Origin: an uncultured Gammaproteobacteria bacterium
Lineage (GTDB): Bacteria; Patescibacteriota; Microgenomatia; Levybacterales; GWA1-39-11
Assembly: GCA_964425075.1 (NCBI GenBank)
Contig: CAYRKM010000002.1
Location: 64,058-128,057, forward strand
Length of the DNA stretch: 64,000 nt
Direction: 5' to 3'
Shown: piece by piece, positions 7,809 to 12,245 of the stretch
Numbering within the stretch: the stretch's first letter is position 1
How the letters are laid out: each line of letters starts with the position of its first letter
Position numbers and translations under genes: made by a program
Notes under the pieces: generated by a model
The model's input: only the letters and a program-made list of their open reading frames with translations
What the model was told of the DNA's origin: nothing
Database searches by the model: none

Positions 7809-10800
7809 TTGAGTATTATGGAGACTTTACATTCCGGTTTTGATCATCCTCCCGTTGGTCCTGCTCCACATCCTGATTCTTCAGGTAGACCCGTCACCCA
7901 CCCACTTCCTGGCGAGCTAGATGGGGAAGGAATGCTTGATCCAACATCTTTGGATTTCTGGCGAAATCTTCATGCTAACCTTACAGGCTTTATAAGCAAG
8001 AACTATCCCTTTTCAGATTTCCTTAAGAATTTCGATAGTGAGAAAGGGAAAGTGGGTCGCACACATTCAAATGGCGATACAAACGCCACATACGCATACC
8101 TTAATGCAATTTATAAACAGCGTTCATTCTCGCATCCCGGCCATCCTACTCTTGAGCAGCATATCGTCTCGCAATTCACACCTCCTACAGATGACCCCGA
8201 CTTTGCTGAAATTGTTGAAGAAACCCGCTCTCTTATTAGACAGCGTTTTCCAGAACATCAGCTTCCTAGAACGACAAGTCTTGTCAAGCTCCAAGATCCG
8301 GAATTTTGGAGCGAATTTGAGGATGAGCTTTCAAAAACTCCTTCGAGTTCAATATTTGCGGATTTTTTAAAAGGAGGAGGTGGCCTTTCTGAAGACGGTA
8401 GTCAGATGCAGGGAAAGTATCATGATGTCTGGCTTGATATATACGATCCTCGGGGTAGAACTGAATTTAGAAATGCATATAAGGAACAAACAGGAAGAGA
8501 TATAGATACTGATTCTGCAAGAGACGCTCAGAGGATTTTCTTCGAAGTAGCACCAGCACGTATAAAAGCACAGCTTATTAAGAGATATCCGAGAATTTTT
8601 AGTGGATTTGCAGTAGAGTGGGTAGGAAATTCTCAATTACCAAAAGCTGCCCAGGCTGTCATTAACACTCTCGGGTGGTTAGGTGAAGATAACCGAAAAA
8701 AAATACTTGACGTACTTTCGAAATATGTGCATATAGAAACAAGTAGTACTTCGGGTTTTGATTTTTCTGCTGAAGATACTAGCATTATTCTTGGACAAGC
8801 AGCAGAACAATCAGAAGTTGTAGCAGCAGAAGTTGGTCCGCCAACACTCGAAACTATTATTCGAGACGCAACTAATACTTTTCAGCTTGTTGAACAAGAA
8901 AAGTTGGATAATGGGAATTCTGAAAATGAACAACTGTCAAGTGAGCTAACAGCTGCCCTTGAAACATCCTATCTTTACCCAACACTTCGTAATGTTTTAT
9001 ATAAACCTTTCGCACTTTTTTGGTCAAAATATCTGGAGACTCATGGTGGGTCCTCTGTTCCCGAAGATGAAATGAGAAGTTTTCTTGACACATATGCACA
9101 TAATGAAATTGCTCAAACATCTCTATCGCCCGAAGAGCAGCAAATGCTTGAGCGTCTTAAAAAAAATGTTTTTTCCACTATTTTTAGTGAATTTATAGAA
9201 ATTGCAAATTACTCTTCTCAAATTAATCACTTCAGGGAAAGAAGCATCGACGGGAAAGCAAAGCATCTGTTTTTTCATCAGGTTGAGGGAATTAAGCATC
9301 TTGTCGAAAAAGGCGCCGGAATTTTAGCTGATGAACCAGGAACCGGCAAAACAGTGACCCTTGCGCTCGCAGCATTAAATCGAGTTGACCAAAAATTTCG
9401 AGAACCTGGAAAAATAGCAAGGGTGCTAGTTGTTGGATCAAAAACTGTTAATAACAACTGGGAGGAAGAACTTGAAATGCATGTTGCGCCAGGTGATGTC
9501 GATACAGTAAATTTCAATTCTGACGAACTTGCACAGTTAAGCCAGGCAAAACGCCTTGAAATAATGGCACAAAGATTGAAAAATCCTACAGCGGATAGAC
9601 AAGTTTTGCTTGTCAATTACGATCTGTTTCGCAATTCATTTTTTCAGGAACTCCTTCATTCTGCAGGAATTGACTGTACAATAATTGATGAAGCTCATAA
9701 TGTAAAATCGCGTTTTATGGATTCTATTGCTGAGCATAACGACGACACGTCCCATAATGCTCGACTTGCAAAACGCACAACAAATCTTTATAGATTTCTT
9801 CTTTCCAACCCGAATATGGATGTTTATTTGGGTACTAGCACTCCCTTCGTCAAAGAATTAATAGAGCCGCTTATCATGGGTCACCTGGTCGATAGGTGGA
9901 GTCTTCCAATTGACCGGGTTTCAGCTTTAAGGGAGGATCCTGCTGGAGCAAATTTGGCACTTCGTGAAGTAATGATTCGGCGACGAAAGGATGCAATCAG
10001 CGATATCCCCCCAAAAGACACAGACTTTATACCAGTAGACTTAAGCCTACTTAGTGCTGCGGAACGCTCGGAGCTTGTTTCATTGGGCCTTGATATAGAA
10101 AGAGCCGATGAAAGCTCTTTCAGAAGATTTTTTTCCATGTTGTCTATTGAAGCTCAAGCAAAAATGCCCTGGCTTATTGAGAAAATAAACGAGTTAACAT
10201 CTGATGGAAGAAAGGTAGTTGTTTTTACTCCATTCGTTAATGACCAGGAAAGACTTACAGCCTCAATAAGTACGAAGGCTATTGCAAAGCGACTTATTGA
10301 TTCAGGAATTACCTCTGTTGGAGTTCTTGATGGAACTTTAAGTGAAAGCGAAAAACTTGCTGTTCAAAGAGATTTTCATGACCCGAATGGGGTAAGAGTT
10401 TTGGTAGGTAATTATCAAACGGCAGGCGAATCAATTACACTTAATTCGCCTTTCAATAGAGCAACTGAAGTAATTATACTCGTTGCACCAAACACAATAA
10501 GTAGATACATTCAAGCAATTGATAGAGTGCATAGAATCGGACAAGATGAGAAGGTTACTATTCACGTGCCTTTTCTTACGGAAGACCCTATCGCAAGGCC
10601 AGACGGAACATATGACAGACGAATTGTTAGTCGAATGCTTAGAGAACTTTCACTCTTTAATGCTGTTGTAGATGGTTTATTTTTTGTTGAAGCTGCAGAT
10701 TATTACGATGAAATTAGACGGGGAAAAAACGGAAACTCAGAACCAAGAACCGCTCTTGAAAGTGGACAAACAGTTCGTTTGGATACAGAACAGAAGCCTC

Positions 10801-12245
10801 CTGCTGCTACTAAAAAAAGGGGCTTAACTCGGGATGTTTTTGACCAAAACACTGACGGAGCAATAGTACTACCAACAAGCAGAGAGGTAAATTTAAACAG
10901 TATTGGCATAAATCACACACGACATCACCAAATAGACAGAGAGGAAGCTTTGGCAATTACAGATTACTTCGACTCAGTGAGTCAATACCCTCTCCTTACA
11001 GTTGAGCAAGAACGTATAGCATTTAGATATCTAACTGAGGGAAAATCTGTCGCACAACTTCGTGATGATGGAGCATTTCTTGCGGCAAATCCTCGTAGCA
11101 CTGCAAAAATGCTTGCTGTACTTTCCGATAGTCGCTCCGTTAGAGATGTACTTGTTGCCTGTAATTTGAGACTCGTTGCCTCAATAGCAAATAGGTACAA
11201 AGGAAGACTTCCTTACACTGACCTGCTCCAGGAGGGAAATATTGGATTAATTAAGGGAATTGACGATTTTGACCCTGAGCGTGGATTAAAGCTTTCAACA
11301 TATGCAACCTGGTGGATTAAGCAATCAATAAGGCGTGCTATTGCTAATACGTCCCGAACTATTGACTTGCCTGTACACATGCATGAAATGGTCACAAAAA
11401 TGGTGCGTGTTTCAAATGAATTTTTTAGTAAACACCAGCGCTATCCATCTATAGAGGAGCTGGTTTCAGAAGGGTTTACTATATCCCAAGTTAACACAGC
11501 TATGCGCATAGCACGACTTGGAATTTCCAACCCCTCATCTCTTGATAGAACAATAGACGATGATGGTGAAACCACAATCGGGTCATTTGTTTCGGACGAA
11601 GGTGATCTTGAAGAAGAAACTATAGCCGCGATGGAAGAGGCTGAGCAAAGTCATATCGTTGGGCGTGCACTTTTATCTTTAAGCGAACGGGAACAGTTGG
11701 TGCTTACTCTTAGATTCGGGCTTGATGGTTCTGGCACTAGAACCCTTGAACAGGTTGGTAAAGAAATTGGTGTGACAAGAGAAAGAGCACGACAAATAGA
11801 AGTTAGTGCCCTAAAAAGACTTCGAGTAAATACCGGGCTTAGGGAGGCATACGATGGAGATTCCCCAAGTTTGCTTTGGTCAAGGGAAGTCTTGCCTACA
11901 AACGTATTGCCTCTTAGACCAGGGCCAATAGACATTGAGAGGGTCTCAGCAATCTCACAAGCTCAAGAAGTAGAAAGGTTGGAGGAGGAGAAAAACAGTC
12001 TTGAATTTGGCAGACAAGTTGTGGAACAAATAAAAATGGTACCTGATATATGGAATGCTTTAACTGATAGAGAGAAGACGCTTTTGACTCTTTATTTTAA
12101 AGGCACATTTGACCACAACACTACTAAAAGTAGACTTTCAAAAATCTTTGGCATAACCGAACAAGAGCTGTCTGTTTACATCGAGTATTCTGTTGCTTCT
12201 CTAGCCAAACACGTTGGTATGACATCCTCTGAGCTTCCTTCTTGA
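7809..12245 (+). CDS. giant fusion protein: N-terminal unknown region + Snf2/RapA-like ATPase + complete RpoD-type sigma-70 + extra sigma-4-like HTH
   Basis: Uninterrupted 1478 codons (TTG at 7809; first ATG at 7818). Snf2 motifs [28 protein letters not shown]. Sigma region 2 [41 protein letters not shown] and region 4.2 [28 protein letters not shown] are near-identical to RpoD consensus. Confidence 0.8.
   Translation: [1478 protein letters not shown]

Follow-up and report, generated by a model that had tools for sequence, protein, structure and literature searches.

Promoter opening by sigma-70 factors is the textbook example of a process that proceeds without ATP, and RapA, like other bacterial Snf2 motors acting on RNA polymerase, is a protein separate from sigma. 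RapA (HepA) of proteobacteria is a free-standing Swi2/Snf2 ATPase that associates with RNA polymerase and binds the core enzyme via domains of its own. In the 64-kb stretch of contig CAYRKM010000002.1 that was analyzed here (hereafter, the window), a single gene encodes a Snf2-family ATPase and a sigma-70-family module in one polypeptide. A first-pass annotation of this DNA had stated that no sigma factor was known to be tethered to a Snf2 motor. In agreement with this, our full-text literature search found no description of a Snf2-sigma fusion and none of ATP coupling by a covalently tethered Snf2-sigma protein; nothing relevant was found in a literature search on sigma factors of the candidate phyla radiation (CPR) and on the sigma-like protein MzaA. 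The fusion protein is probably a principal-like (group 1/2) sigma-70 factor with a role in remodeling, in which region 1.1 is replaced by an all-alpha domain, a Snf2 translocase that is catalytically intact as judged by its motifs, and a tether, in which a region-4-like helix-turn-helix (HTH) is added, and which is co-transcribed with a partner gene.

The fusion is encoded by an uninterrupted + strand open reading frame (ORF) at 7809..12245. Its continuous translation comprises the 1478 codons reported previously when counted from the TTG at 7809, which is a mechanical ORF start. The ATG at 7818 is likelier to be the start codon than this in-frame TTG, and the complete gene from this ATG (7818..12245, including the stop codon) encodes 1475 amino acids (aa). 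The 1475-aa product is identical to a recorded protein, P0001, of an NCBI contig of 232,462 bp. All aa positions of the fusion are given with ATG 7818 as aa 1, and all of its features lie on the + strand.

The Snf2-family ATPase core (aa 483-970; 9264..10727) was recognized in Pfam by SNF2-rel_dom at aa 487-632 (3e-15, 56.6 bits) and Helicase_C at aa 787-908 (4.5e-10, 40.2 bits). The Snf2 motifs quoted in the first-pass annotation were all located in the translation: ADEPGTGKT at aa 504-512, with the Walker A sequence GTGKT at 9339-9353; IIDEAHNV at aa 622-629, with DEAH at 9687-9698; and an arginine-rich motif VI of the Snf2 type at aa 899-909 (10512-10544). The two Pfam domains together with Walker A, DExH, and motif VI place the protein in the Snf2 family. 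The stretch between the helicase lobes had been described as a linker of about 80 aa. It is about 155 aa long and is not a linker, because Snf2 core elements lie inside it, namely a motif III-like GTSTPF (aa 672-677; 9831-9848) and MIRRRKD (aa 719-725). A PDB sequence search returned Rad54, SsoRad54, INO80, Rad5, and ISWI at weak E-values and no RapA chain at E <= 0.001. Within the family of homologs described below, G508, G510, K511, T512, D624, E625, and H627 are invariant in all 27 clusters, and R903, R906, and Q909 of motif VI are at least 90% conserved over the same clusters. The Snf2 core is the best-conserved segment of the protein, with a mean pairwise identity of 50%, and this indicates that the motor is under purifying selection.

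The motor is joined to the sigma part by a variable, low-complexity tether (aa 971-1046; 10728..10955) with a mean pairwise identity of 13.5%. The tether measures 51-110 aa in the sigma-bearing members and is rich in P, G, S, T, N, and Q. It had been called a basic linker; however, its net charge is -1 in the window protein and ranges from +1 to -13 over the members, being neutral to strongly acidic in the relatives.

The sigma-70-family module occupies aa 1047-1336 (10956..11825) according to Pfam, NCBIfam, and PDB sequence matches. The profile hidden Markov model scan that confirmed the SNF2 and Helicase_C domains also confirmed region 2 (Sigma70_r2, aa 1112-1180; 11151-11357; 7.7e-18, 64.5 bits against a cutoff of 24) and region 4 (Sigma70_r4, aa 1284-1336; 11667-11825; 1.6e-17, 63.2 bits against a cutoff of 24.1). 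Because these two regions exceed the Pfam gathering scores, the module belongs to the sigma-70 family. Region 3 was borderline, just under its cutoff (Sigma70_r3, aa 1194-1265; 11397-11612; 1.9e-5, 25.1 bits against 25.3), and region 1.2 was sub-threshold (Sigma70_r1_2, aa 1047-1066; 10956-11021; E = 0.06). The sigma strings quoted previously were located at aa 1050-1071 (region 1.2), 1160-1190 (regions 2.3-3.0), and 1309-1336 (region 4.2). The earlier assignment as a sigma-70 with regions 1.2 to 4.2, and not as an extracytoplasmic function sigma, is thus upheld, with region 1.2 being weak in Pfam. Residues kept across the family include NLRLV..A..Y and DL.QEG..GL for core binding, STYATWWI.Q for melting and the -10 element, and TRER.RQ for the -35 element.

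The closest PDB sequence matches of the sigma part were SigA, SigB, and RpoD chains (E = 1e-54 to 1e-48), and its identity to canonical RpoD over regions 2-4 was 43%. The RpoD, RpoS, and SigA models of NCBIfam scored about 190-237 bits, all below their cutoffs of 354-780; the scores for the RpoD equivalogs were 221.3 against 354 (TIGR02393), 234.7 against 555 (NF004208), and 212.9 against 572 (NF006666). No Sigma70_r1_1 match was obtained for region 1.1, and the Snf2 core and tether precede region 1.2 instead. The scores under the equivalog cutoffs and the missing region 1.1 speak against an assignment of the module to group 1 (RpoD/SigA). In addition, the mean identity within the family was 35% for the whole sigma module and 48% for region 2, both lower than that of the Snf2 motor. 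The claim that the module aligns almost residue for residue with RpoD, and is a primary sigma on that account, is not supported by these comparisons.

Region 4 is followed by a C-terminal tail of 136 aa (aa 1340-1475; 11835..12242), which weakly resembles a second region-4 HTH. The tail matched region 4 in a self-BLAST comparison (E = 0.034) and positions 82-163 of TIGR02937 below the cutoff (E = 0.001, 18.7 bits). The relatives carry 150-617 extra aa after region 4, some of which match GerE, Sigma70_r4_2, HTH_Crp_2, TrmB, KORA, or HTH_24.

At the other end of the protein, a family-specific N-terminal domain (aa 1-480; 7818..9257) precedes the motor. Zero matches were obtained for the first ~480 aa in Pfam or NCBIfam, as expected from the first-pass annotation, which had seen no recognizable domain there. 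An AlphaFold2 model of aa 1-480 based on an 11-sequence alignment was all-helical, with a predicted local distance difference test (pLDDT) score of 80 and a predicted template modeling score of 0.63. Two copies of a module of about 50 aa, FW..DL..F..FL..GKY, were found at aa ~45-99 and ~161-208 (hhalign 96.5%, E = 7e-10). No known-fold counterpart of the domain was found; as modeled, aa 1-480 is a novel all-alpha fold with an internal repeat.

In order to define the family, aa 1-1040 were used as a HMMER query against 1.84 billion cluster representatives (clusters at 50% identity). Twenty-seven clusters were obtained at E <= 1e-112 (at least 392 bits), matching from about aa 40 to about aa 970. 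They are sharply set apart from other proteins: the next match, a 108-aa fragment, scored 118 bits, and generic Snf2 proteins scored at most 82 bits. Sigma70_r2 was present in 21 of the 27 clusters and Sigma70_r4 in 19, and the lengths were mostly 1250-2160 aa. Word-index searches with the full protein, an N-terminal domain plus Snf2 profile, and a partner profile gave only two to three matches each, and the family was seen through the exhaustive HMMER search. A metagenome scan with a broader alignment yielded three true members. On the other hand, a scan of genome contigs with patterns from the two closest sequences matched only an unrelated Bacteroidetes Snf2 protein, these patterns being too narrow. 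One candidate member, P0003, was rejected as an unrelated alphaproteobacterial dnaG-rpoD locus.

The same architecture was found in about 20 clusters and in six other loci, where intact, colinear fusion ORFs encode 1443-1764 aa. Three of these loci come from Logan assemblies (L001, 1587 aa; L003, 1597 aa; L004, 1610 aa), and three from JGI or other metagenome contigs (L005, 1443 aa; L006, 1764 aa; L007, 1536 aa). The L005 ortholog lies on the 765-kb JGI contig Ga0080064_1000010, and its 1443-aa gene call is identically placed in the 723-kb contig k127_79717 of an ENA groundwater assembly (ERZ978523) and in a 490-kb metagenome record of NCBI, these further assemblies representing at least two projects. 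A CPR/Patescibacteria-like host is suggested by the GC content of the window (~38%), the groundwater origin of one ortholog, and the 720-765-kb contigs, and the family probably belongs to a small clade of such small-genome groundwater bacteria.

These findings bear on the concern, raised with the first-pass annotation, that the gene might be a chimeric assembly, a hidden frameshift joining separate genes, or a decaying pseudogene. The window comes from a metagenome-type assembly, and two Logan contigs from the same organism reach just the last 216-273 codons of the fusion. Nevertheless, the colinear architecture recurs with a similar tether length in the six independently assembled loci and in about 20 clusters that are 30-45% identical, the gene call of one ortholog is repeated in two or more other projects, and the catalytic and DNA-reading residues are intact. 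In addition, the GC content at third codon positions (GC3) is even over all domains of the fusion (0.290 against 0.282 +/- 0.028 for the ORFs of the window). An artifact is therefore very improbable. The fusion can be regarded as a real, conserved, single-chain gene, borne out by its Pfam domains and by family conservation, and an assembly chimera is excluded for practical purposes by these sequence comparisons. As judged from the alignments, purifying selection acts on both the motor and the sigma module, which share one polypeptide throughout a deep family. The overall GC content of the fusion, 0.412, is indeed above that of the neighboring genes, as had been noticed (ORF mean 0.379 +/- 0.022; 1.5 standard deviations higher). 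However, the horizontal acquisition that had been considered on this basis is unsupported because GC3 is average, and a recent horizontal transfer of the gene was rejected for the same reason.

A sigma-less clade of about 1200 aa, with the same N-terminal domain and Snf2 core, is represented by P0013 (NCBI GCA_964628435.1) and P0016. The sigma-less loci L070:101-3820 and L071:8001-11609 show variations on Walker A, for example DEAGLGKT and SEAGTGKT, and no sigma gene or partner gene lies close by in either of them.

The partner gene (12282..13505, + strand; 407 aa) starts 36 nt past the stop codon of the fusion, and no terminator-like site was seen between the two genes. A partner homolog of about 400-550 aa lies immediately or nearly downstream in all seven loci with a sigma-bearing fusion. 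The partner tracks the sigma-bearing form, since the sigma-less relatives L070 and L071 are without it. Identity among the partner homologs is 25-45%; both of their termini are conserved, and a module in the middle is duplicated. The partner had no match in Pfam, NCBIfam, or PADLOC; a weak Trans_reg_C (OmpR-type winged helix) hint was obtained with Pfam in two of the seven orthologs, and a PDB profile search gave chance-level S20 matches only. Based on this gene arrangement, we propose that the fusion and the partner are co-transcribed and that the partner is dedicated to the fusion. A consensus scan upstream of the fusion revealed a weak promoter-like site, TAGCCA-16-TAAAAT with a TG preceding the -10 hexamer (7728..7755, + strand); the count of such sites over the scanned region was not above that in shuffled sequences. 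In four of the seven loci, a gene of about 350-620 aa with no confident Pfam match and 32-39% identity lies immediately upstream of the fusion (L003:8373-10058, L004:212-2074, L006:4787-6625, and L007:87-1142). In at least the L003 and L004 copies, a short stretch resembles the N-terminus of certain fusions. This gene is missing from the window.

The relative conservation pattern and the dedicated partner lead us to favor a specialized sigma over a housekeeping one, with fair confidence and from sequence comparison. Conservation is lower in the sigma module than in the motor, another residue (Y, H, P, N, or A) takes the place of the first Trp in the tryptophan dyad (W-dyad) in 6 of the 13 members displayed, and the RpoD models remained below their cutoffs. 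A dedicated, co-transcribed partner is typical of alternative sigma factors. It is also conceivable that the fusion is the sole sigma of its clade, so that each holoenzyme would carry an ATP-driven Snf2 motor and initiation would be motor-assisted. Regions 1.2 to 4.2 are all there, with rpoD-box-like regions 2.3-2.4 and canonical -35-reading residues, the top PDB sequence matches include primary SigA and RpoD chains, and the genomic context is one of core functions. Neither the 64-kb window nor some 100 kb of sequence at related loci contained another sigma, and small genomes usually encode few sigma factors. The XPB translocase of eukaryotic TFIIH and the ATPase-dependent sigma-54 may be drawn on as parallels. 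However, every RpoD cutoff is missed, at 43% identity to RpoD; the motor evolves more slowly than the sigma module, and the W-dyad is variable; just 27 clusters exist among 1.84 billion representatives; and there is a sigma-less clade. Moreover, the sampled DNA is a minor fraction of each genome, so that the absence of a second sigma there says little. A housekeeping role is thus possible but rather unlikely. We likewise doubt the related proposal that the fusion is the only principal sigma of the clade with the conserved partner as its regulator. If this were true, each initiation event would involve a holoenzyme that contains its own ATP-driven translocase, a bacterial counterpart of TFIIH/XPB-dependent opening.

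Another conceivable role is that of a conflict, anti-phage, or mobile-element component, in which the sigma part would redirect the host RNA polymerase to a defense program and the Snf2 part would act like the helicases of Zorya, DISARM, BREX, or Dpd. The sigma-like MzaA has reportedly been proposed to redirect host RNA polymerase in this manner. Its model (NF041931; PADLOC PDLC02203) was the highest-scoring one for the fusion in both NCBIfam and PADLOC (237 and 137 bits, respectively), followed by ZorD, BrxH, DpdE, and DrmD at about 20-60 PADLOC bits. Furthermore, some orthologs have a Fic gene, a PIN toxin, or a TraG-like ATPase in their vicinity, and the neighborhood of the fusion is not syntenic between genomes. 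In contrast, the MzaA match covers the generic sigma part only, with 237 against 800 bits, and the Zorya, DISARM, BREX, and Dpd helicase models gave only partial matches that scored no higher than 58 bits (PADLOC) and 37 bits (NCBIfam), with cutoffs at 500-1500, which places the protein outside these helicase families. PADLOC detected no MZA partner gene among the fusion neighbors, no Mza, Zorya, DISARM, BREX, or Dpd gene is adjacent, and the neighbors are without any PADLOC match. The window context is core metabolism and the GC3 is native. No phage record (of 50,697) and no plasmid record (of 72,556) had the architecture, covered more than 32% of the fusion protein, or spanned both of its halves, and no fusion was found in a scan of viral contigs. 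A defense role is accordingly improbable.

For the specialized sigma that we favor, the following mechanism may be envisaged. Regions 2 and 4 would bind the core enzyme at its beta-prime coiled-coil and beta flap and would read the -10 and -35 elements. The flexible linker of 50-110 aa would connect the double-stranded DNA translocase to region 1.2, at the position where region 1.1 is normally tethered, and anchoring to core and promoter would place the Snf2 motor beside promoter DNA. The anchored motor could then pull or twist the promoter-flanking duplex relative to the polymerase at the expense of ATP and thereby remodel the promoter complex. Remodelers are known to translocate against the histone octamer, and Mot1 against TBP. 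Possible outcomes would be the removal of obstacles bound to DNA at promoters, help with opening or escape, and the release or recycling of holoenzyme. The partner may act as an anti-sigma-like regulator or as a DNA-binding cofactor of the sigma part.

Several points weigh against this interpretation. Binding of the sigma part to core RNA polymerase and ATPase activity are both predicted from sequence, and the direction and target of remodeling are ones that we purely infer. The assignment as specialized derives from relative conservation only, and the fast evolution of CPR bacteria could also explain the conservation pattern. The existence of the sigma-less clade implies that covalent attachment to a sigma is not required for the motor module to function. 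As to the role of the partner, its single-sequence structure model was unusable (pLDDT 41). Finally, the placement of the clade is indirect, being drawn from the groundwater source, the 720-765-kb contigs, the GC content of ~38%, scattered tRNA genes, and shortened synthetases.

A conserved family in which an intact Snf2 translocase is tethered to a promoter-reading sigma factor points to a coupling of ATP hydrolysis with initiation, promoter clearance, or holoenzyme recycling. With one gene and one partner, the system offers a compact and tractable test of a DNA motor anchored at a promoter. It also adds three uncharacterized modules specific to little-studied small-genome groundwater bacteria, namely the N-terminal repeat domain, the partner, and the upstream protein of about 600 aa.

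The window appears as an ordinary chromosome of a reduced genome with ~38% GC. Its genes include zwf, gnd, EamA, MFS, ZIP, and CorA transporters, MgsA, MurF, PBP1A, a DEAD-box helicase, ThrRS, PheST, TyrRS, RecG, TrmD, and PilM, and 14 tRNA genes are scattered through it. The block that holds the fusion and the partner also contains gnd and zwf and is bracketed by tRNA-His and tRNA-Arg (4971-5191) and tRNA-Gly (13981-14052); no further sign of an integrated element was seen around this block. A 121-aa ORF (13506-13871, - strand) beside the tRNA-Gly gene converges on the partner gene, and its counterpart on the Logan contig L068 has an ASCH domain. The match of ThrRS (44619-45869, 416 aa) to the thrS model is confined to positions 171-564, and that of PheT (48670-50622, 650 aa) to its own model is confined to positions 157-797. 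The N-terminal parts that these synthetases usually have are thus missing from both, as would fit a streamlined CPR-like genome. In a 506-aa ORF (17962-19482, - strand), a membrane segment resembling NQR2/RnfD/RnfE (aa 155-267) occurs together with an FNR-type NAD-binding reductase domain (aa 380-485), an unusual combination for a reduced genome. A 220-aa ORF at 41366-42028 has a DUF5660 domain (1e-31), for which a literature search found nothing relevant.

Two further observations were made at the loci of relatives. At L005:236-5942 (also in L065 and L066), seven back-to-back ORFs of 252-284 aa share one strand, with genes for a VWA-domain protein and a Fic protein downstream of them, and have the appearance of a tandem paralog array; no Pfam match is on record among those of the seven with retrieved gene calls. 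Fic-domain proteins encoded at L005:8330-9316 and L071:4082-5074 are 45% identical to each other and lie about 0.3-3 kb upstream of the Snf2 gene, in a sigma-bearing (L005) and a sigma-less (L071) locus, respectively.

Among the known systems, the fusion protein and RapA have in common that they are bacterial Snf2 ATPases, and they share the idea of a double-stranded DNA translocase that remodels or recycles polymerase. RapA, however, is a separate protein, whereas the motor in the window is covalently joined to sigma. The RapA model NF003426 scored 44.2 bits against a cutoff of 576, over profile positions 132-286 of 959 and barely above other Snf2 models, and the N-terminal domain is all-alpha and not of the RapA type that contacts RNA polymerase. 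Together with the PDB sequence search, these results led us to abandon the earlier label of a RapA-type motor. The generic Snf2 core is what the fusion shares with ZorD, DrmD, BrxHI/II, and DpdE, to which it shows weak and partial PADLOC matches. In contrast to the fusion, none of these helicases has a sigma module, and no nuclease or system partner genes accompany the fusion; the mentions of "sigma" in the BREX paper concern an HTH in BrxL only. MzaA likewise is a long protein whose C-terminus is formed by a sigma-70-type module and whose N-terminal extension is not of the sigma type, but the match is limited to profile positions 459-703, and the N-terminal part is unrelated.

The sigma part resembles RpoD, SigA, RpoS, and SigB in its regions 1.2, 2.1-2.4, 3, and 4.2, with the residues for core binding, -10 melting, and -35 reading. 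It differs from RpoD and SigA in that, in place of region 1.1, about 1040 aa comprising the novel domain, the Snf2 core, and the tether stand before region 1.2, in the extra HTH tail past region 4, and in its unusual variability within its own family. By analogy, the fusion may be likened to sigma-54 with its AAA+ enhancer-binding proteins and to TFIIH with XPB/Ssl2, in which an ATPase coupled to an initiation factor works on promoter DNA. However, these systems use other motor superfamilies and sigma families and their ATPases act in trans, whereas the sigma described here keeps the aromatic melting residues of sigma-70, for which promoter opening needs no ATP. Snf2 and sigma-70 domains are well known; the same does not hold for their covalent combination, the N-terminal domain, and the partner.

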